Below, one piece after another: positions 5,337 through 51,987 of a DNA stretch of 64,000 nucleotides. The notes under the pieces are model-generated. The model ran no database searches. It was not told where the DNA came from and saw only the letters and a list, made by a program, of their open reading frames with translations. Made by a program: the position numbers and the translations under genes. Position 1 is the stretch's first letter. Each line of letters opens with the position of its first letter. Source of the stretch: an uncultured Pseudomonadales bacterium (lineage in GTDB: Bacteria > Patescibacteriota > Microgenomatia > UBA1400 > PJMF01); the NCBI GenBank assembly GCA_964404025.1, contig CAYOIJ010000003.1:10727-74726 (forward strand), written 5' to 3'.

Positions 5337-5411
5337 GCTTCTGTAGTTTAGTGGATAAAACATTGGTTTCCGGAACCAAAAACGAGGGTTCGATTCCCTC
5401 CAGAAGCACCA
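5337..5411 (+). tRNA. tRNA-Arg (anticodon CCG)
   Basis: Manual fold: 7-bp acceptor GCTTCTG/CAGAAGC, D-arm GTTT..AAAC, anticodon stem TTGGT/ACCAA with loop TTCCGGA, T-arm GAGGG-TTCGATT-CCCTC, discriminator A, and an encoded CCA. Confidence 0.8.
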
Positions 5412-5439: not shown

Positions 5440-5589
5440 TTTAATGATATAATATACTCAGTCTTAGATTGAAAACGTGCCGAGGTCCAATATTATTTCC
5501 TCCATAGTTCAAAACACAAGATGACCCTTAATTATAAGGGTAATTATTATTATTGTTGCAAAAATTTTTGCAACAGAAAAAAGGAAAAC
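5440..5589 (+). promoter_or_regulatory. Promoter-like -10 element (gatATAATat) followed by a structured 5' leader with two hairpins. The first is ACCCTTA-ATTA-TAAGGGT at 5524-5541. The second is TGTTGCAAAAA/TTTTTGCAACA at 5554-5575. Together they precede the RRM-protein gene.
   Basis: The inverted repeats were read directly from the sequence. The SD AAGGAAA lies 6 nt before the ATG at 5590. Confidence 0.35.
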
Positions 5590-5949
5590 ATGTCTGATTA
5601 TAGACAAGAAGAACCAAACAAAAAGAAACTTTTTGTTGGCAATCTACCTTTTAGTACTACTCAAGAGGAACTGCAAGAAGTTTTCTCAAAATTTGGCGAA
5701 ATCGCCAATGTAAACTTGATCACTGATCGTATGTCAGGTCGACCAAAAGGCTTTGCCTTTATCGAAATGAACAGCGAAGAAGAAGCTCAAGCTGCCATTG
5801 ATGGCATGAGTGGTCAAAAGATTGGTGACCGAGAAGTCATCGTTAATTTGGCTAGACCCCGCCAACCCCGTGATAACCAACGTGGTGGTTTCGGTGGTCA
5901 ACGCAACTACGGAGGTAACCGTTCAGGTGGCCGTAGCAACCGTTATTAA
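5590..5949 (+). CDS. RNA-binding protein with one RRM domain and a Gly/Arg-rich (RGG) C-terminal tail
   Basis: RNP2-like LFVGNLPF and RNP1-like KGFAFIEM are present. The C-terminus is GGFGGQRNYGGNRSGGRSNRY. The true start is the Met after a good SD; the ORF-track start at 5521 is an upstream in-frame extension. Confidence 0.85.
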   Translation: MSDYRQEEPNKKKLFVGNLPFSTTQEELQEVFSKFGEIANVNLITDRMSGRPKGFAFIEMNSEEEAQAAIDGMSGQKIGDREVIVNLARPRQPRDNQRGGFGGQRNYGGNRSGGRSNRY

Positions 5950-37260: not shown

Positions 37261-38217
37261 CTAGTCTTTTATTAATTGTGCTGTTACTACCCCGCGACGT
37301 AAAGTAGTCCCCTCAGGAGTACAAGTCACTAACTTCAACTGACGCACATCGTAGCGTTGAGCTAAAATAAAGGTGTCATCTGGCTTAACCTCTGTCTTGC
37401 TTTGCACAATGTAAGTATATTTAACATTATCATGAGTTAAATATATTTTTTCTCCTCTTTCCAGCAACATAATTTTGCTAAAAATAGAAGTATAGCGACG
37501 AGGGTTATTTTCACTAGGATTGTAGAATTGACGCAAAACAGAATGGCCAAAAAGCACTGGTGAACCCAATTGTCCTGGTAGACCAGTACCAGGATAATGA
37601 ATTAAGCTCTGGTTAAGATCTGTGCCTCCAACCCTTACTTTCGCATTAGTAATATTTAAACTAGGAATATCTAAAGTATATTCAATAAATTCACTTTTAT
37701 TTAATTCTGGAACATCGAGCTCACTACTAAACCAATTACTTAAGTCAGTAAAATCAAGAGCCTGATCTAAAATGACTGGTCCATTTTCAGCACTCTTATT
37801 TGCCTGGCTTTCTTCAAGATCGACCTGAGCTTGAGCGGAAATAAGAGGCGTACTAAGTAATAATTGGGAGTGTGGAACCGGGGACAATAAGGCTAATTTT
37901 TCTTGTTTATTCCAGGGTAAATAATATTCTATCAGAGGCCAAAGCGCAGATAAGGCTAGAACTAAGCCAAAAGCTATTAATGCCAAAGGTAATAAAGTTG
38001 CCCCAAATCTAATTCTTCTTGGCAAACGTCGCCAAAAATTTAATTTAATTTGTTTGTCCAAAACCTGTTCTTCTTTACGACTAACAACGTCTTGTTTTAA
38101 AAAATAATTAACTTTTTTATTCAAATCTTGAATAGCCACCCCTTCCTTGAGAGCTTGACGGTAAAGCTTTAGAATTTGCTTTTTTTGCAGAGATGGTTGG
38201 GAATCTTTTTTGGCCAT
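37261..38217 (-). CDS. sortase-family transpeptidase (membrane-anchored)
   Basis: It has one TM helix. The catalytic His is in LFGHSVL, the catalytic Cys is in the TLxTC-like LKLVTCTPEG, and Arg follows (RRGVV). It lies 5 nt downstream of the 747-aa gene. Confidence 0.75.
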   Translation of the reverse strand: MAKKDSQPSLQKKQILKLYRQALKEGVAIQDLNKKVNYFLKQDVVSRKEEQVLDKQIKLNFWRRLPRRIRFGATLLPLALIAFGLVLALSALWPLIEYYLPWNKQEKLALLSPVPHSQLLLSTPLISAQAQVDLEESQANKSAENGPVILDQALDFTDLSNWFSSELDVPELNKSEFIEYTLDIPSLNITNAKVRVGGTDLNQSLIHYPGTGLPGQLGSPVLFGHSVLRQFYNPSENNPRRYTSIFSKIMLLERGEKIYLTHDNVKYTYIVQSKTEVKPDDTFILAQRYDVRQLKLVTCTPEGTTLRRGVVTAQLIKD

Positions 38218-38222
38218 AGGAA

Positions 38223-40466
38223 TTAATTAATAACAAAATTAAAACGAGCAGTGTTTTTTGGTAACTTTTGCACTAGCTTGGACAAAAATTCTGGTTGATA
38301 TACTATTTCTGCTTTGCTTATTAATTCTTGGTCTTCTAGATTATTTTCTGCTTCTTCAATGCTCTTGCCAACTAATAAGTCTGTCAACGACTCTTCATCA
38401 ATATTTGCTCTAGATTTAGCTGATAACTCTGTACTTAAAATTAAACGATTACTGTCATCTTCAGTCGGAACAGCTCGATCGCTTAGTAGTGATGGCTCTT
38501 CATCAACAAATTCATAATTTTCTGGCAGATCCATAAGCAAAACTGCTCGCGCCAACTGTTTCAAGTCACTAGATAAATATTTGACGGCCTCAACTTCTAA
38601 ATTCATTTTTAAAGAAAGAGTTTCCACCTCGTCTCCCTCTTCGTGATCATATTCAAAAAAAGTAATACGACTCTTATCACTTGCTACAAAATAAACACCA
38701 TCTCTAGACTCTTCAGCAAACTCATCTTTAGCAATTTCGTTTAAACTTGTTCTTAATTGACTCAGTAAATTTTCTAAATCCTCTTTGGAAACCACTCTCA
38801 CCTCTCTACTAGAACCACCAGAAAAATTTTCAAGAGCAGTAGCTGAATAGGTATCTTCACTAAAATCTGCAACTTTTAATTTACTATCTTTTTCAATATT
38901 GGCGTCTGCTCCTATGTCTTTAGCAACCACCATCGCTTCTTTACTCCCATAATTCATTCCAGCACCACCCTCTTCTTCTTCAGCAGCAGCTACTATTACT
39001 TCTTCCTCAAATTCAAACAAAACACCCTCGTGCTCCAAAGTTGTACTAGCAGCAAAAGTTTTTTCACTAGAAGTCTTATTAAATAATTTAATCTTTCCCT
39101 TAGCTTTTTCTCCTACTAAACTAATACCAGTTGTACTTAAGCTGTCTTCACCGCTAATTTCTTTTTTTACTAATGACGCTTTGAGTAAATTTTTATTATA
39201 ATCAGATTCTGCTAGTTGAGGATCAAGAATGATATCGAGATTTTTTTGCAGTATTTGTTCGTCCGCTTTAATTCTGACTGTTATATTCGATAAGAAAAAA
39301 CTAAAAATAAGTAGAATAATCGTTAGAGCTAATAGACCGCTGCTAACTCCAATTATTAATGATTTACGATTTTTTCTTAAAAAACGAGCTAAAGGAGTCA
39401 TTTTTTTTATTTTTTCTGGGTTTTTTGTTAATACGGGTTTAACAACTTGATGATTTACTTGATCGGGATTAAATTCTTTCAATTCTTCAGATTTAAAATC
39501 AGTGAATTGAGCTCTATTATTCTCTTCATCCGCCTTGACTTTATCAGAAGCGAAATCAATACCAAAACTACTAATTTTTTGCTCTTCACTCTTTACCTCA
39601 ACTTCATTTGCTAAATTATTTTCCAGATCAGTACCTTTTTCAACACCATGAACTATGCTTAAATCCTGATCAAGTTTAGATCTGAAGTCAGTTGATAGCA
39701 TATGACTGGCTGCTAAACTTAGAGACTTAATTAAAAAGTCTATTTCTAAAACTACAAATTGTGGTGCTTGTAAAAAACCACTGACTTTTGTCCAATCAAA
39801 GGCTTGCAGTTGTGACTGCTCCTTTTTTAAAGATTTTTGACTAAGATTTAATGAGGTCAGAAAAAGTTTGTTGGGAAAATATTTGCCCTGTTCTCCTAGC
39901 TCTTGGCTAACTCTTGCTAAACCCTCTTGTAAATCGTCAGTCAATTTTGCTGATCTACCAACTCGAAGATTAAGTAATAATTGACCATGTTTAATCAAAA
40001 TTAAATCAAAATCTCGCTCACGCAAATAGATAGTGAGGGAAGAGTCACGAGGATCATTAATAATCCGAGATCTATGAATTCCCTCACTTACACTCATTTG
40101 TCCCAAAGCAGATAGGCTTAAACTTTCTGATAATTCTTGAACTATGACTTTTTTACTATCTAATAATTCACCATCTTTCAACCAAGACTCATCAAAAATA
40201 AAAACACAATCTGCTACTTCGTCTGCTAATAATCCCAAGTCTTGTAGTGACTGGTCGAGTTGAATTAACAAATCTTGACGATCAAAATAAGTTTTAATTG
40301 CAGAATACTCTTTAATTTCTTGCTTCTTATTAACTAAAGCGCTCTGCAACTCTTGATCACTTAAAATGATAGAAATAAATAATTCCTCATGATTAAGGTT
40401 CTCAGTTAGATCATGATGCTTCTTTTCTTTTTTTCTCTGAGTAAATTTTTTCAATAAATTGGGCAT
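38223..40466 (-). CDS. uncharacterised 747-aa bitopic membrane protein. It has a ~370-aa cytoplasmic N-domain, one TM helix, and a ~350-aa acidic extracytoplasmic C-domain. It is the first gene of the sortase operon.
   Basis: The single hydrophobic segment is LIIGVSSGLLALTIILLIFSFFL at ~aa 372-394, after a basic stretch KNRKS. The N-domain has a weak actin-fold/PilM-FtsA-like feel (LILIKHGQLLLNLRVGRSAKLTDDLQEGLARV), but no recognisable motif could be confirmed by eye. Confidence 0.5.
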   Translation of the reverse strand: MPNLLKKFTQRKKEKKHHDLTENLNHEELFISIILSDQELQSALVNKKQEIKEYSAIKTYFDRQDLLIQLDQSLQDLGLLADEVADCVFIFDESWLKDGELLDSKKVIVQELSESLSLSALGQMSVSEGIHRSRIINDPRDSSLTIYLRERDFDLILIKHGQLLLNLRVGRSAKLTDDLQEGLARVSQELGEQGKYFPNKLFLTSLNLSQKSLKKEQSQLQAFDWTKVSGFLQAPQFVVLEIDFLIKSLSLAASHMLSTDFRSKLDQDLSIVHGVEKGTDLENNLANEVEVKSEEQKISSFGIDFASDKVKADEENNRAQFTDFKSEELKEFNPDQVNHQVVKPVLTKNPEKIKKMTPLARFLRKNRKSLIIGVSSGLLALTIILLIFSFFLSNITVRIKADEQILQKNLDIILDPQLAESDYNKNLLKASLVKKEISGEDSLSTTGISLVGEKAKGKIKLFNKTSSEKTFAASTTLEHEGVLFEFEEEVIVAAAEEEEGGAGMNYGSKEAMVVAKDIGADANIEKDSKLKVADFSEDTYSATALENFSGGSSREVRVVSKEDLENLLSQLRTSLNEIAKDEFAEESRDGVYFVASDKSRITFFEYDHEEGDEVETLSLKMNLEVEAVKYLSSDLKQLARAVLLMDLPENYEFVDEEPSLLSDRAVPTEDDSNRLILSTELSAKSRANIDEESLTDLLVGKSIEEAENNLEDQELISKAEIVYQPEFLSKLVQKLPKNTARFNFVIN

Positions 40467-40558: not shown

Positions 40559-42463
40559 TTATCTGAAACGAATATAGATCCGTCTAATTCCTTGAGCTAT
40601 AGCCTGTTCTTTAAAAATTTCCAATTCTCCAAGACGAGCTATTTGCGAGGTGTGCTCGACGTGAGGTCCGCCACAAAGCTCCTTTGATATCCAATTTTGC
40701 TTATCACCAATAGTATAAACTTTTACTTTTTGTGGATAACGTTCAGCAAAAAAAGCAATTGCACCAGACGCTAGAGCCTCTTCTTTAGACATTGTTTCGC
40801 TAGACACCTGCAGATCATCTTCAAGCCACTGATTTAATAATTTTTCTATTGATTTGAGTTGCTCATCACTAAGTGATTGATGATAACTAAAGTCGAAACG
40901 AAGGCGATCACTACTAATGTTCGAGCCTTTTTGCTGTACTTCATTACCCAAAATTTTTCTTAGAGCAGCTTGCAGCAGGTGAGTAGCTGTATGAAAAGCA
41001 GTGGTTTTGGCATCTTGATCAGCCAAACCTCCTTTGAATTTTTTCTGAGTAGTCTGCCGAGATAATTGCGCATGTTGGCTGCGTTTTTCAACAATTTTAT
41101 TTTCAATTTGATCTTCAAGTGCAATATTCCTTGAATTAGCCTCTTCAATGGATAATTCAAAAGGAAAGCCATAGCTCTCATACAGTCTAAAGGCTAGTTC
41201 AGCTGTTAATTGATCTTTATTTGCTATTAAACGATTAAACTCTTTTAAACCTCTGATCAAAGTTCTATTGAATTTTTGCTCTTCAGTTCTTAAAACATTG
41301 CTAATCAAATCTTTTTTCTTTAATAAGTCAGGATAAAAATCTTGATAAAGTGCCAATATGTCTGGCACGATTTCCGTCACAAAATTTTCTTTTAAATCTA
41401 GATGTCGAGCCTGCCTCAAAGATCGTCTAACTAAACGACGTAACAAATAGCCTTGTTCTTTATTGCTAGGCAAAACTCCATCACCAATTAACATCACGCT
41501 GGCACGAATATGATCAGCAATAATACGAAAAGCCGGCTTATACTGTGAATTTTGATATTCTTTAGCACTCAATTTAACTAGTTTATTAATAATGTTTGAA
41601 AAAGCACTGGTTTGAAAAATATCTACCTGGTTTTCTACTGCTGCTAATAATCGCTCTAAGCCTCCACCAAAATCAATATTTTTTTGCTCTAATTCTTTAA
41701 AACCGTCTTGATCACGCTGATATTGCATAAATACACTGTTACCGATTTCTAGGAAACGACCACAGTCACAATTAATGTGGCAAGGCTGACTGGCAAACTT
41801 AGAATGTTGGTGGATGTCAACATTAGACTCAGAATCAGTGAAATCATAGAAAACCTCACTGTCTGGCCCACCCAATTCACCAATAGGCATTTTGGATGGT
41901 GCACCAGACCTTGACCACCAATTTTTCTCTTCATCATAGAAAAATATTCGACCTCCTTGTAGTCCCAATTGAGGCCTATCAATAATTTTAGCTTCAACAC
42001 CTCTCTCTTGGAATAATTTTTGCCAAATGTTTGCTGATTCATTGTCTTTGGGAATATTAAGTTCTTTCTTGCCTGCAAAAACTGATACATAAAGACGCTC
42101 TGGCTTTAGCTTGAGAACATCAACTAAAAATTCAAAACAAAAATTAATTTGCTCTTTTTTAAAGTAGTCACCAAACGACCAATTGCCCAACATTTCAAAA
42201 AAAGTTGTATGACGATTGTCACCCACTTCTTCAATATCTTCACTGCGAAAACATTTTTGTGAATTAACTATTTTTTTACCAAGAGGATGATTTTGGCCAA
42301 AAAAATAAGGAATCATTGCTTGCATACCAGCACTGGTAAATAAGGTCGTCGGATCATTTTCTGGCACTAAACTTGCTGAAGGTACAATAACGTGACCCTT
42401 AGCAATAAAAAAATCTAAGTATAAGCGACGTAAACTAGATAAGGTTAAAGAAGAATGAGACAT
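40559..42463 (-). CDS. alaS: alanine--tRNA ligase, short form of 634 aa. It lacks the C-terminal C-Ala domain.
   Basis: The N-terminus is LYLDFFIAKGHVIVPSASLVPENDPTTLFTSAGMQ. The editing-domain motifs HTATHLL and CGGPHV are present, and the protein ends shortly after them. Confidence 0.88.
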   Translation of the reverse strand: MSHSSLTLSSLRRLYLDFFIAKGHVIVPSASLVPENDPTTLFTSAGMQAMIPYFFGQNHPLGKKIVNSQKCFRSEDIEEVGDNRHTTFFEMLGNWSFGDYFKKEQINFCFEFLVDVLKLKPERLYVSVFAGKKELNIPKDNESANIWQKLFQERGVEAKIIDRPQLGLQGGRIFFYDEEKNWWSRSGAPSKMPIGELGGPDSEVFYDFTDSESNVDIHQHSKFASQPCHINCDCGRFLEIGNSVFMQYQRDQDGFKELEQKNIDFGGGLERLLAAVENQVDIFQTSAFSNIINKLVKLSAKEYQNSQYKPAFRIIADHIRASVMLIGDGVLPSNKEQGYLLRRLVRRSLRQARHLDLKENFVTEIVPDILALYQDFYPDLLKKKDLISNVLRTEEQKFNRTLIRGLKEFNRLIANKDQLTAELAFRLYESYGFPFELSIEEANSRNIALEDQIENKIVEKRSQHAQLSRQTTQKKFKGGLADQDAKTTAFHTATHLLQAALRKILGNEVQQKGSNISSDRLRFDFSYHQSLSDEQLKSIEKLLNQWLEDDLQVSSETMSKEEALASGAIAFFAERYPQKVKVYTIGDKQNWISKELCGGPHVEHTSQIARLGELEIFKEQAIAQGIRRIYIRFR

Positions 42464-44404: not shown

Positions 44405-44481
44405 TGGTGGACAATACTGGACTCGAACCAGTGACCTCACGAATGTGAATCGTGCGCTCTAACCAGCTGAGCTAATTGTCC
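44405..44481 (-). tRNA. tRNA-Val (anticodon CAC)
   Basis: Manual fold of the reverse complement: acceptor GGACAAT/ATTGTCC, D-arm GCTC-AGCTGGTTA-GAGC, anticodon stem CACGA/TCGTG with loop TTCACAT, T-arm ACTGG-TTCGAGT-CCAGT, and an encoded CCA. Confidence 0.8.
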
Positions 44482-45249
44482 TTTACTGGCAGCCTGTATT
44501 ATAAAACAAAGCCTGACTTTTTAAAAAAGCAAAGTCAATTTTCTGTCAATTCGAAATTTTACAATGCTTTAGTGAAAAATTTTTCATTTTTTCATTGTTG
44601 GCAAGCTTATCTCTTACCAGATTTTTGCCAACATTGCCAAAAACTGGGCCCCATGCTTTGTGAAAGTTGTTATCAATTGATAGAGTTTTTTTGGCAAGAA
44701 GATTTTGGGCCGTTTTTTAGTAAAAATTTTGAAAAAGTTTATTTTAATCAAATAAGAGTAATGGCTCGTTTTAAAACTCCAATCAGCTCACTAATTAAAT
44801 CATTAAAATATCAACACCACAGTCGGGCCAGTAAATTCTTAGCTCAAATGTTATTTTTTCATCTTAATATCAATTATGAGAAGTTTGATTTAATCACTTT
44901 TATCCCTATTCACAGCCAAAAAATTAAAAAACGAGGATATAATCAAAGCCAGCTTATTGCTGAAGAATTAGCTCTGTGGACTAAAAAGCCCTGTCTTGGT
45001 CTGTTAAAAAAAACCATCAACAACAAGGCTCAGGCACAAATTAGCGATAAACAAGAGCGCTTGCAACGACTCAAGAAAACTTTTAAAATTTCTCATTCTT
45101 ATTCTCACCAACAATCCTTAAAAGATAAAAGAATTTTATTAATCGATGATGTTATTACTACTGGTGCCACCATAAATAGTGCGAGTAGCGTATTAAAAAA
45201 ACACGGAGCAAACTTTGTTTCAGTCTTAACTTTGGCAGCTAATCTATAA
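44476..45249 (+). CDS. comF: ComF-family protein (ComFC-like, phosphoribosyltransferase domain). The annotated start overlaps tRNA-Val by 6 nt, so the true start is probably further downstream.
   Basis: It has an N-terminal Cys-rich region (CQHCQKLGPMLCESC), a PRPP-binding motif RILLIDDVITTGATI, and ends in VSVLTLAA. Confidence 0.6.
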   Translation: MSFTGSLYYKTKPDFLKKQSQFSVNSKFYNALVKNFSFFHCWQAYLLPDFCQHCQKLGPMLCESCYQLIEFFWQEDFGPFFSKNFEKVYFNQIRVMARFKTPISSLIKSLKYQHHSRASKFLAQMLFFHLNINYEKFDLITFIPIHSQKIKKRGYNQSQLIAEELALWTKKPCLGLLKKTINNKAQAQISDKQERLQRLKKTFKISHSYSHQQSLKDKRILLIDDVITTGATINSASSVLKKHGANFVSVLTLAANL

Positions 45250-45270
45250 ATTAAAACAGATTGCTGAATA

Positions 45271-45299
45271 TTGATTTTCTCGAGTATAAATGCTATAAT
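45271..45299 (+). promoter_or_regulatory. sigma-70-type promoter for ssrA: TTGATT-N17-TATAAT
   Basis: The -35 TTGATT (45271-45276), a 17-nt spacer, and the consensus -10 TATAAT (45294-45299) sit ~16 nt before the mature tmRNA 5' end. Confidence 0.45.
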
Positions 45300-45315
45300 A
45301 ACTTGTTCATTAACA

Positions 45316-45717
45316 GGGGATGTATTGTATTGACGTCAGTCAACTTTAATCATAGCAGATCATCTTTGGTGAAAAGATGTTAAAAAACACTAAAAAATAA
45401 CTGTCAAAAACAGTTTTAAAACAGCAGTTAATAAAGTCGCCAGTCTTTTTGACTTCGGCTTCGTAGCTGCTCCTGCTTTTGCTTAATTGTAAAAGTAGGC
45501 ATCTAGTGTTGAACTCTTATCGACGGTTCACATTAGGTGAAAACCTAGTCGATTAACAGAAATAAAGAATCAGGTCGCTTTGTTTCTAAGAATTAGGCCT
45601 GGATGAAGCAAAAAAAGTTTGTCTATTCACTTCTTGCTTCAAATCAAAAATAAACTAAATCTGTAGACATCGTTAAAGTCAGATTAGCGGACGCGGGAGC
45701 AAAACCCGCCATCTCCA
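45316..45717 (+). ncRNA. ssrA: transfer-messenger RNA (tmRNA, SsrA)
   Basis: The 5' GGGGATG pairs with the 3' CATCTCC to form a 7-bp acceptor stem with G3:U70. The 3' tRNA-like end GGAC-GCGGG-AGCAAAA-CCCGC-CATCTCC-A matches the E. coli GGAC-GGGGG-UUCAAAU-CCCCC-CGCCUCC-A architecture. The 5' D-analog is ATTGTATTGACG. An internal tag reading frame follows AGTC, from the GCC resume codon at 45439 to the TAA at 45484-45486, encoding ASLFDFGFVAAPAFA. The CCA is not encoded; the sequence reads A-CAA. Confidence 0.7.
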
Positions 45718-45745
45718 CAAAAATAAATATTTATCTGAAAATTAG

Positions 45746-46231
45746 TTAGTTTTTGAATTTAAGGCTTAGACCTAAGCCAAGCGCTAATATCCCTAAAGCA
45801 AAAATTATAATTGTATTCTCTAGAGCACCTGATTCTGGCAGAGTTGTTTTCGCAGAGGGGGTACTCATGCTAGCCACTTCTGACACATTCACGACTAAAT
45901 CTAGTGATTCGCCAGCAGAACTAACTACCAAATTATTGTTCCCGTAAGCAACATCGCTAAAATTAACCCCCCAACTACCCAAAGAATCAGCGGCAGTATT
46001 ATTGTTCAAATCCCCAAGCGCTACTCGCACCTCAGCTGAAGGAGAAGCAGTTCCTCTGACGGTAAAGCTTGTTAGGGTAGTATCATAAGTTTTCACTGTA
46101 GATCCCAAACCCACAATTGAATCGTTACCTCCTATGGCATCAATCGTAAGAGCGCTGGCAAACACTGGTTTAATCAAAACAAGAGATAAAAACAAAAAAA
46201 ATAATAGGGCAATTTTTGTGATTTTTTTCAT
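45746..46231 (-). CDS. small secreted surface protein with a C-terminal LPESG sortase sorting signal (paralog A)
   Basis: Signal peptide MKKITKIALLFFLFLSLVLIKPVFA. The C-terminus is TTLPESG-ALENTIIIFALGILALGLGLSL-KFKN: motif, hydrophobic segment, then a basic tail. Confidence 0.7.
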   Translation of the reverse strand: MKKITKIALLFFLFLSLVLIKPVFASALTIDAIGGNDSIVGLGSTVKTYDTTLTSFTVRGTASPSAEVRVALGDLNNNTAADSLGSWGVNFSDVAYGNNNLVVSSAGESLDLVVNVSEVASMSTPSAKTTLPESGALENTIIIFALGILALGLGLSLKFKN

Positions 46232-50922: not shown

Positions 50923-51987
50923 CTAATAGGTGGGTAGAAAAATTTTGACATTATCTGGCCTAATAATCACTTCTTCAAAACCACGCTCTACAATAATTCG
51001 TGCTGCTTTACGCACCGCACCCTTAAGAGTGCGCTGCAGCGTTCTTACTCCAGCATCAAAACCCAAAGGACGCACTAAGGTTGGCCAAATTGCTTCATCA
51101 ATTTTGAATTGACTTTCTTTCAAACCAGCCTCTTTGATAATGCTTGGCAAGATATACTTTTTAGCAATTACTATCTTTTCTTCATCGCTATAAGATGGCA
51201 TATCAATCCGTTCCATACGATCAATTACTGCGGTTGCAATGCGTCGAGTGTTATTACAAGTAGCAATGAAAATTGCTTGGCTCAAATTAACTGGGTAATT
51301 AATGTAATTATCTACAAAAGCATGATTTTGAGCTGGATCTAACAGCTCTACTAAAACCCCCATAATATCATTATTGGCTTCATCAGCGGCTCGATCAATT
51401 TCGTCAAGCAAAATCACAGGATTCATTGTTTTAGCTTCACACAAACCCTGTATCACTGCTCCGGGTTGAGCTTCTAAAATCAGTCGCGATTCACCACGCA
51501 GTTCTTTAGCAGATACCATGCCGCCAATGGGAATGCGCACTAATTGACGCCCTAGCGCTTCTGCCAAAGAATAGGCAAAAGTAGTTTTTCCAGTGCCCAC
51601 TAGACCGACTAATAGTAAAATCGGTGCAGAGAATTCTTGGCTAGTAAAGTTTTGTTTTTGTAAATTAAGAATAGCTAAATATTCTAAAAAACGATCCTTA
51701 ACCTCTTTTAAACCATAATGATGTTTATCAAAAACTATTTTAGCCGCCTGAATATCTAGAGTGTCTTCACTTTTTTGAGCAAAAGGGATCTTAATTACCC
51801 AATCTAAATAACGAGAAACTTTGTCGTATTTTTCATCATAATTTCCCAATTTGACACTGCGCTCTAGAGAGCTTAATTCTTTTTTTAATTTTGATAAAAG
51901 CTCTTCTGGCAATTGAATTTGTTCAATTTTTGCTTTAAGCTCGTCAAGTTCTTGATTTAAAATTTCTTCAGAATTAATTTGAGACAT
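50923..51987 (-). CDS. Lon-like AAA+ ATPase. It has a Lon ATPase module but no LON N-domain and no S16 protease domain.
   Basis: It aligns by eye to the Lon region ...YLDWVIKIPF...DKHHYGLKEVKDRFLEYLA...GLVGTGKTTFAYSLAEALGRQLVRIPIGG...ILLDEIDR. The protein ends at 354 aa. Confidence 0.65.
   Translation of the reverse strand: MSQINSEEILNQELDELKAKIEQIQLPEELLSKLKKELSSLERSVKLGNYDEKYDKVSRYLDWVIKIPFAQKSEDTLDIQAAKIVFDKHHYGLKEVKDRFLEYLAILNLQKQNFTSQEFSAPILLLVGLVGTGKTTFAYSLAEALGRQLVRIPIGGMVSAKELRGESRLILEAQPGAVIQGLCEAKTMNPVILLDEIDRAADEANNDIMGVLVELLDPAQNHAFVDNYINYPVNLSQAIFIATCNNTRRIATAVIDRMERIDMPSYSDEEKIVIAKKYILPSIIKEAGLKESQFKIDEAIWPTLVRPLGFDAGVRTLQRTLKGAVRKAARIIVERGFEEVIIRPDNVKIFLPTY

Follow-up and report, generated by a model that had tools for sequence, protein, structure and literature searches.

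The resume codon of transfer-messenger RNAs (tmRNAs) encodes mostly alanine and sometimes glycine, and the tags run from 8 to 35 residues (PMC3968760). Two modifications of the T-loop, m5U54 and pseudouridine-55, have been documented in tmRNA, and the binding of SmpB has been reported to require interactions between the D-loop and the T-loop (PMC3968760). On the side of alanyl-tRNA synthetase (AlaRS), the tRNA elbow is bound by the C-Ala module (PMC8887476, PMC10036535). In Mycoplasma, an organism without ClpXP, a hydrophobic and aromatic tag of 27 amino acids (aa) serves as a Lon degron (PMC8403727). The locus described here lies in a 64-kb stretch of contig CAYOIJ010000003.1 (64,000 nucleotides (nt) in all, called the window below), in which an earlier note, made from the sequence alone, had proposed an unannotated tmRNA gene (ssrA). 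The segment 45316–45717 is very probably indeed a standard one-piece tmRNA of a bacterium of the Patescibacteria (Candidate Phyla Radiation, CPR). It is a known kind of gene with an ordinary housekeeping function and a mildly interesting variant elbow, and its unusual traits are limited to this non-standard elbow and to a long, 27-codon tag with valine in the first position.

A search with the Rfam tmRNA model RF00023 gives an end-to-end match (model positions 1–374 of 374) at 45316–45720 of the plus strand, with 102 bits against a gathering score of 47 and an E-value of 1e-38, which is the outcome that the earlier note had expected of a covariance-model search. As it had also stated, the gap between the ComF-like gene and the following 161-aa open reading frame (ORF) is free of ORFs, none of at least 60 aa being present on the two strands of 45250–45745. 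The acceptor stem GGGGAUG/CAUCUCC-A with its G3:U70 pair and the T-arm GGAC-GCGGG-AGCAAAA-CCCGC, whose stem is the same as in E. coli ssrA, can be read directly in the form given there, and all seven pairs of the acceptor stem, the third being G:U, are invariant in 14 distinct sequences. The 3' CCA is not encoded, a further point on which the note was right: the gene reads A-CAA at 45717–45720, with CAA (45718–45720) at the place of CCA.

The secondary structure was written from the Rfam alignment, the second stem of each pseudoknot being added by hand. Among the seven closest sequences, pairing holds in 97.3% of the cells, and nine pairs show changes on both sides. For a broader set of 16 sequences from across the lineage the share of paired cells is 86%, as compared with 36–44% when the 3' partners are slid by one to three columns, and compensatory changes occur in 67 of 110 pairs (203 cells); none of 500 shuffles reached any of these values. 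The structure was derived from the window sequence, so the contrast with the slid partners is inflated, but the double changes still lie far beyond the controls. They are found in helix 2, helix 5, both stems of pseudoknots 1, 2 and 3 (three pairs in each stem of pseudoknot 1), stem 1 of pseudoknot 4, and the T-stem, whose five base pairs are 100% paired and include one compensatory pair (C:G to G:C or A:U). Compensatory changes distributed in this way throughout the molecule therefore argue for a canonical one-piece tmRNA with four pseudoknots. The pseudoknots and the tag-region fold, on which the earlier note had made its proposal depend, can thus form, with stem 2 of pseudoknot 4 being weak.

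Two sets of relatives were used, one from a scan with a 22-mer of the T-arm (one genome per species) and the other sampled by anchoring on AlaRS regardless of the T-loop. The scan yielded six metagenome-assembled genomes (MAGs), titled Candidatus Paceibacterota, Candidatus Woesebacteria or 'uncultured Pseudomonadales', each with a tmRNA of ~405 nt at the same position (93–101 bits). Loci with AlaRS homologues of 56–75% identity share the same gene order, FtsK ... tmRNA - ComF - tRNA-Val(CAC) - YqeY ... AlaRS ... rpoB-rpoC, and a tmRNA of 76–100 bits lies in the matching gap of nine out of ten AlaRS-anchored loci, the tenth (L140) ending short of the gap. In total, orthologues in 16 further loci score 76–102 bits with RF00023, and the named proteins among the homologue matches come from Patescibacteria. 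Three MAGs labelled 'uncultured Pseudomonadales' (L006, L009, and L010, accessions CAYXJQ01, CAYMSV01, and CAYSMC01, respectively) carry tmRNAs that are 90–97.5% identical to that of the window, in a gene order of the Patescibacteria type; these labels are almost certainly wrong.

ARAGORN called two tRNAs and no tmRNA in the window, because the elbow of this tmRNA is non-standard. Its silence was considered as evidence against the gene and rejected as a limit of the tool, Rfam being positive: the 17 tmRNAs of the lineage are all found by Rfam and only two of them by ARAGORN, whose call in L009 has its start 115 nt upstream of the true one. ARAGORN is used for tmRNA calling in many annotation pipelines; those depending on it will under-report the gene in these Patescibacteria, and surveys could thus wrongly deny them trans-translation.

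Upstream of the gene, the TTGATT-N17-TATAAT promoter pointed out in the earlier note is present, although the consensus match alone is not above chance (2 sites versus 2.7 expected in shuffles). Its support comes from conservation: TTGATT-17-TGCTATAAT recurs among the relatives, and TTGA[T/A][T/A]-17-TG[C/T]TATAAT is kept in seven related genomes in which the surrounding spacer varies. Also conserved in seven genomes is an 11-nt sequence, GTTC[A/T]TTAACA (45305–45315), directly before the GGGG of the mature 5' end. A terminator scan downstream of the tmRNA revealed no intrinsic terminator, and the hairpin GGCUUAG-AC-CUAAGCC at 45762–45779 was rejected as a part of the gene, as it has no U-tract and lies inside a convergent ORF.

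The non-standard T-loop remarked on in the earlier note is real and conserved in the clade. The stem GCGGG/CCCGC carries the T-loop UUCAACU in E. coli ssrA and AGCAAAA in the window gene, and the D-loops are AUUCUGGAUUC and UAUUGUAUU, respectively. The window gene has U in place of the first D-loop G, A at position 54, and G at position 55, and keeps C56, A57, A58, and the second D-loop G. The window tmRNA thus departs from the elbow consensus (U54-U55-C56...A58 in the T-loop and GG in the D-loop); this consensus was regarded as a variable trait and not as a criterion of membership, because relatives of equal score vary at positions 54, 55, and 58. With A54 and G55, neither m5U54 nor pseudouridine-55 can form. 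Eleven genomes of the clade share AGCAAAA, which for this reason is no sequencing error; the next relatives have other loops. Ordered by the identity of their AlaRS to that of the window, the T-loops read AGCAAAA (window, L133, L134, and L139; 65–100%), CUCAAAA (L135; 64%), GUCAUAA (L136 and L141; 58–59%), UUCAUUA (L142; 57%), and UUCAUUG (L138 and L137; 56–57%), D-loop positions 18/19 being AG in the last two loci and UG in all the others. Constancy throughout the lineage is limited to C56, A57, and the second D-loop G: all four bases occur at position 54, G or U at 55, and A or, in several members, U at 58. AGCAAAA is one state of a stepwise, lineage-wide drift of the T-loop. A collection of viral contigs scanned for the AGCAAAA T-arm gave no matches.

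Loops without U55 are not confined to this lineage. A scan of metagenomes for tmRNA 3' ends lacking U55 returned at least 120 loci (L012–L131), nearly all with UGC loops, the set probably spanning several phyla. The loops with G55 include UGCGAUU, UGCGAAU, UGCAAUU, and others (e.g., L016, L022, L058, L066, L086, and L087), and where the 5' end of a UGC-loop tmRNA could be recovered the D-loop has AG, not GG, in 30 of 33 cases. The tags at these loci range from short (ANTQYALAA) to long (ANS[F/L]..K...FAPAFA). As far as the sequences compared indicate, G55 is a recurrent variant, and the combination of A54 and G55 with UG is particular to the window clade. Two schemes of covariation were tried and rejected. 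A link between D-loop position 18 and T-loop position 55 (G:U to A:G to U:G) holds in one direction only, L137 and L138 combining AG with UUC and L142 combining UG with UUC; the metagenome sample, having been selected for non-U55 loops, bears on that one direction. An exchange of an 18:54 pair (A18/U54 to U18/A54) is refuted, because position 54 varies between A, C, and G with the D-loop UAUUGCUUU unchanged.

The tag frame, which ends ...AAPAFA-UAA, is open back to 45394, and translation most probably resumes at GUC 45403, to judge from the comparison of related sequences, giving the 27-codon tag VKNSFKTAVNKVASLFDFGFVAAPAFA with five Phe, six Ala, three Lys, and one Asp. A valine resume codon is unusual with respect to the literature. 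This GUC is position 88 of the tmRNA, 10 nt past pseudoknot 1, and in the relatives with readable tags (ARAGORN or manual reading) coding starts at positions 81–96. In L078, the nearest outgroup outside the syntenic series, the resume context is AAAAAAUAACU|GCA, as compared with AAAAAAUAACU|GUC here, the preceding 11 nt being identical. Five branches of the lineage share GUC; following AUAACU or AUAAAU, it is common to L139, L135, L136, and L141, the next branches have ACAACU|GCC, and L116 also resumes on valine, with the codon GUA. The N-terminal part of the tag falls within a family common to the relatives, [A/V][K/N]S[F/L]..K......F....AP.[F/Y]A, of which ANSLKEKVASLF..., AKTLLSKVKTAF..., and VKTSLKQAVEKVANFF... 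are examples. Upstream of 45439, three codons show differences from L135 that are synonymous only (GCA/GCU, AAA/AAG, and GUC/GUU). In the orthologue L009, its one call in the close clade, ARAGORN arrives at the identical tag of 27 residues, although it misplaces the 5' end. The tags of two relatives, ...PSLAFC in L135 (5439–5828, minus strand) and ...PALAYC in L136 (6885–7286, minus strand), end in Cys in place of the usual Ala, Cys being an unusual last residue for an ssrA tag.

A small hairpin, invariant within the clade, brackets the resume site, the last base of its 5' strand being the first base of the resume codon. Equivalent 5-bp hairpins are present in L058, L066, L086, L122, L116, L050, L100, and L068, making 9 of 20 independent lineages with the window included, versus 5.7% of control positions, with the middle pair covarying between C:G, G:C, A:U, and G:U. 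The hairpin may have a role in setting the frame or in presenting the resume codon, and the conservation of N-S-[F/L] at the start of the tags may be due in part to it.

The readings that compete with a functional one-piece tmRNA concern its nature, its integrity, and the start of its tag. That the segment belongs to another class of structured RNA (e.g., RNase P RNA, a two-piece tmRNA in permuted order, or a tRNA-like remnant of an integration site) might be considered given that integration sites often are the 3' ends of tmRNA genes (PMC4131195), and that the 3' end shows a sub-threshold likeness to the permuted tmRNA model. A permissive Rfam search of 45150–45850 produced, besides the tmRNA, only this partial match and matches at the level of chance; the permuted models (RF04321 and relatives) recognise the 3' end alone, with 20.3 bits versus 47. 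The standard model, on the contrary, matches positions 1–374 in one colinear piece, the 5' and 3' halves being contiguous and paired with each other. RNase P RNA, which the earlier note had already dismissed, gave no match at the gathering threshold in the window and none at E-values up to 10 in 45150–45850, nor did any other competing Rfam family reach its gathering threshold, so that this group of explanations is extremely improbable. Decay of ssrA in a reduced genome, with the odd T-loop, the lost D-loop GG, and the lost CCA taken as signs of pseudogenisation, has a precedent in the documented loss of ssrA from one extremely reduced symbiont, Carsonella (PMC4131195), and the T-loop is off consensus at positions 54 and 55, and in relatives also at 58. 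Several observations likewise weigh against a working tmRNA of the kind proposed here. No smpB was found with tblastn in the window and ten syntenic loci, using a probe that does detect smpB beside tmRNA in 13 other loci, and a search with the SmpB of L078 found many SmpBs of Patescibacteria but, among the best 120 matches, none on a known contig of the clade. The elbow lacks G18, U54, and U55 in the face of the reported requirement for SmpB binding; stem 2 of pseudoknot 4 and the resume hairpin show little covariation within the lineage; and in the seven closest genomes none of the four variable codons upstream of 45439 varies synonymously versus five of seven downstream, a pattern which alone favours a short tag. 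A remnant would, however, hardly score 102 bits over its full length, as high as relatives with more standard loops, or have every helix maintained by extensive compensatory substitution, the promoter, the acceptor stem, G3:U70, A73, and C74 all invariant, and the tag ORF open with a conserved C-terminus in 17 of 17 members of the lineage. SmpB, moreover, is widespread in Patescibacteria and is expected in this genome. Decay is thus very unlikely.

The start of the tag is the point on which a competing reading deserves more attention. The earlier note had placed it at GCC 45439 (position 124), so that the same tmRNA would add the 15-residue ASLFDFGFVAAPAFA, and the 36 nt at 45403–45438 would be a non-coding spacer with a hairpin. 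Alanine is the usual resume residue (PMC3968760), the context AGUC|GCC is like AGUC|GCA of E. coli, and the distribution of synonymous changes among the seven closest genomes agrees with a start there. That GCC, however, would sit 46 nt past pseudoknot 1, far from the positions at which coding starts in all the relatives, and AGUC is replaced by AAUC in four of the seven close genomes. The AAAAAAUAACU sequence of L078 stands right before a GCA resume codon aligned with the GUC of the window, the upstream stretch VK.S[F/L]K..V.KV is conserved at the amino acid level and shows synonymous changes relative to L135, and in L066 the motif KVASLF runs across the proposed start. The wider comparison, comprising the L078 context, the tag family, the shared GUC, and the synonymous changes in L135, thus overturns the within-clade pattern, and resumption at GCC is unlikely. 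Of the tag described in the note, the frame and the UAA stop stand, but the start was most probably set 12 codons too far downstream; the C-terminus is hydrophobic and Ala-rich as stated, yet not charge-free, since even ASLFDFGFVAAPAFA contains Asp and the 27-codon tag three Lys and one Asp.

To return to the elbow, the simplest reading of the sequence series would be that constraint on it has been relaxed or altered in this lineage, and that of its tertiary pairs only the outer G:C is kept. A more far-reaching proposal, which we put forward tentatively and consider rather doubtful, is that it has been released from the near-universal T-loop motif, with the G19:C56-equivalent pair and A57 retained, in a genome with canonical tRNAs. 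If true structurally, this would mean that the outer G:C layer of the elbow suffices for SmpB binding, for recognition by RNase P and the CCA-adding enzyme, and for contacts with the ribosome. What allowed the constraint to relax might be a change, particular to this lineage, in a partner of tmRNA, the candidates being an altered SmpB and the lineage-wide loss of C-Ala from AlaRS. The AlaRS of the window ends after its catalytic and editing/SAD domains, which bears out the remark in the earlier note that it lacks C-Ala. The same two domains without C-Ala are found in all of its best 120 homologues (55–100% identity, 618–656 aa), the named ones belonging to Patescibacteria, Paceibacterota, or Woesebacteria. 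The loss of C-Ala was rejected as the specific cause of AGCAAAA: it occurs also beside UUC-loop tmRNAs and with every type of T-loop, and being lineage-wide it cannot specifically explain this loop, so that it is at most a permissive background. A literature search, limited in extent and no proof of novelty, found no account of tmRNA elbow variants in CPR/Patescibacteria.

Both tRNAs of the window have canonical GGUUCGA-type T-loops and an encoded 3' CCA, set against CAA and AGCAAAA in the tmRNA gene. Among the relatives C74 of the tmRNA is invariant, and positions 75–76 vary, the 3' end being CAA, CCA, CAU, CCU, or CUG, with CCA encoded by four of them (L010, L011, L138, and L142). Should an encoded CCA be general among the tRNAs of the genome, the CCA-adding enzyme may have the tmRNA as one of its main substrates.

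The pathway in which this tmRNA would act can be outlined after established trans-translation (PMC3968760). Transcription would start from the conserved sigma-70 promoter, RNase P would cut off the short leader to produce the 5' end at G45316, and the 3' trailer would be trimmed and the CCA completed by the CCA-adding enzyme, needed because the gene reads ...CUCC-A-C-AA. AlaRS devoid of C-Ala would charge the tmRNA with alanine through G3:U70 and A73, and SmpB and EF-Tu would accompany Ala-tmRNA into the vacant A site of a ribosome that has stalled. Transpeptidation would be followed by resumption at GUC, by the addition of VKNSFKTAVNKVASLFDFGFVAAPAFA behind the alanine borne by the tmRNA, and by termination at the UAA that helix 5 holds in its loop. 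The long Phe/Ala-rich tag would mark the product for proteolysis, and its likeness to the 27-residue Mycoplasma tag suggests, as the probable protease, one of the Lon or FtsH type.

Table 1. Features of the tmRNA gene and of other parts of the window (positions in the window; comp., compensatory)
Feature	Position	Strand	Remarks
Sigma-70-type promoter	45271–45299	+	TTGATT (-35), 17-nt spacer, TG-extended TATAAT (-10); consensus scan, 10/12 matches; putative function
Precursor 5' leader	45300–45315	+	presumably removed by RNase P, as in known maturation (PMC3968760)
Mature tmRNA (ssrA) through discriminator A	45316–45717	+	402 nt; RF00023
Acceptor stem, 5' strand	45316–45322	+	GGGGAUG, G3 at 45318; pairs with 45710–45716
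D-loop analogue	45323–45331	+	UAUUGUAUU; U-G at 45326–45327 for canonical G-G; UG invariant across the clade
Helix 2, 5' strand	45332–45360	+	pairs with 45659–45691; 17/21 tested pairs change on both sides
Pseudoknot 1	45361–45392	+	stem 1 45361–45366/45374–45379; stem 2 45367–45371/45388–45392
Resume hairpin	45399–45415	+	AACUG-UCAAAAA-CAGUU; invariant within the clade
Tag frame (probable)	45403–45486	+	resume GUC 45403–45405; 27 codons, VKNSFKTAVNKVASLFDFGFVAAPAFA; stop UAA 45484–45486
Helix 5	45472–45499	+	UAA stop in loop; Rfam alignment; 6/10 pairs change on both sides
Pseudoknot 2	45500–45553	+	comp. pairs: stem 1 12/14, stem 2 3/6
Pseudoknot 3	45558–45601	+	comp. pairs: stem 1 8/10, stem 2 5/6
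Pseudoknot 4	45605–45655	+	stem 1 7/9 comp.; stem 2 weak, 82% paired, 1 comp. pair
Helix 2, 3' strand	45659–45691	+	
T-arm	45693–45709	+	stem GCGGG/CCCGC; 7-nt loop AGCAAAA 45698–45704 (A54 G55 C56 A57 A58 A59 A60)
Acceptor stem, 3' strand, and discriminator	45710–45717	+	CAUCUCC 45710–45716 (U70 at 45714); A 45717
tRNA-Arg-CCG	5337–5411	+	
142-aa protein	5521–5949	+	RRM_1
Protein with sortase orthologues	37261–38217	-	
~750-aa conserved protein	38223–40466	-	no Pfam match
AlaRS	40559–42463	-	634 aa; tRNA-synt_2c and tRNA_SAD only, no C-Ala/DHHA1 domain; 3 kb from tmRNA
tRNA-Val-CAC	44405–44481	-	
ComF-like gene, 5' neighbour	44476–45249	+	longest ORF 257 aa, TTG start
161-aa ORF, 3' neighbour	45746–46231		
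354-aa ORF	50923–51987	-	

Of the two neighbours of the tmRNA gene (Table 1), the 161-aa ORF is encoded identically on NODE_90 (122.9 kb) of ENA ERZ4240871. The longest ORF of the ComF-like phosphoribosyltransferase overlaps the tRNA-Val gene, located on the opposite strand, by 6 nt; the real start of ComF probably lies further downstream, as gene callers use a version of 198 aa. The ~750-aa conserved protein is located between AlaRS and the gene with sortase orthologues in every relative examined, and may be a sortase substrate or a surface protein. The 354-aa ORF is situated upstream of the UDG and RNase J genes and has a positional orthologue in L133 (400–1464); the positional orthologues in relatives comprise AAA and Lon_lid domains and no protease domain, which by analogy could make this ORF relevant to the handling of tagged proteins. 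The 142-aa protein adjoining tRNA-Arg has a clear eukaryote-type RRM_1 domain (E 3e-24).

The importance of the locus is modest, and the basic picture of tmRNA is unchanged. Its lineage offers a natural mutational series in which positions 54, 55, and 58 and the first D-loop G are dispensable and C56, A57, and the second D-loop G are not. Such a series is informative about the recognition of the elbow by SmpB, RNase P, the CCA-adding enzyme, and the ribosome. The valine resume codon and the long Phe/Ala-rich tags resemble the solution adopted by Mycoplasma, and hint at the proteases that clear tagged proteins in ultra-small genomes.

Compared with E. coli ssrA, the window gene has the same 7-bp acceptor stem with G3:U70 and discriminator A, the same GGAC-GCGGG...CCCGC stem of the T-arm, and the same succession of a long helix 2, pseudoknot 1, the tag ORF, helix 5 with the stop codon in its loop, and pseudoknots 2 to 4, as well as a hydrophobic, Ala-rich end of the tag. 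The two differ in the T-loop (AGCAAAA versus UUCAACU), the D-loop (UAUUGUAUU with UG versus AUUCUGGAUUC with GG), the probable resume codon (GUC for Val versus GCA for Ala), the length of the tag (27 versus 10 codons) and of the RNA (402 versus 363 nt), and in the CCA, which is unencoded in the window (CAA). In Mycoplasma the first encoded residue of the tag is not alanine either. The tmRNA of M. pneumoniae shares with that of the window a host with a reduced genome and a hydrophobic and aromatic tag of 27 residues ending in ...FA (PMC8403727). The two tags are, however, unrelated in sequence, and a preference for Lon or FtsH in the window organism is suggested by analogy only. For the T-loop, a precedent exists in eukaryotic initiator tRNA, which has A54 and A60 in a 7-nt loop that still folds; it applies to A54 only, as this tRNA, a different molecule with a different function, keeps pseudouridine-55 and its partners G18 and G19. 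The UGC-loop tmRNAs of metagenomes (L012–L131), including that of L078, a Beckwithbacteria-like member of the Patescibacteria, share with the window gene G55 and the loss of the canonical D-loop GG, are often missed by ARAGORN, and in many cases carry long tags of the form ANS[F/L]..K...F...FAPAFA, L078 having the resume context in common as well. They differ in keeping U54, in a D-loop with AG (30/33), and in resuming mostly on GCN, whereas the window clade has A54 and UG.

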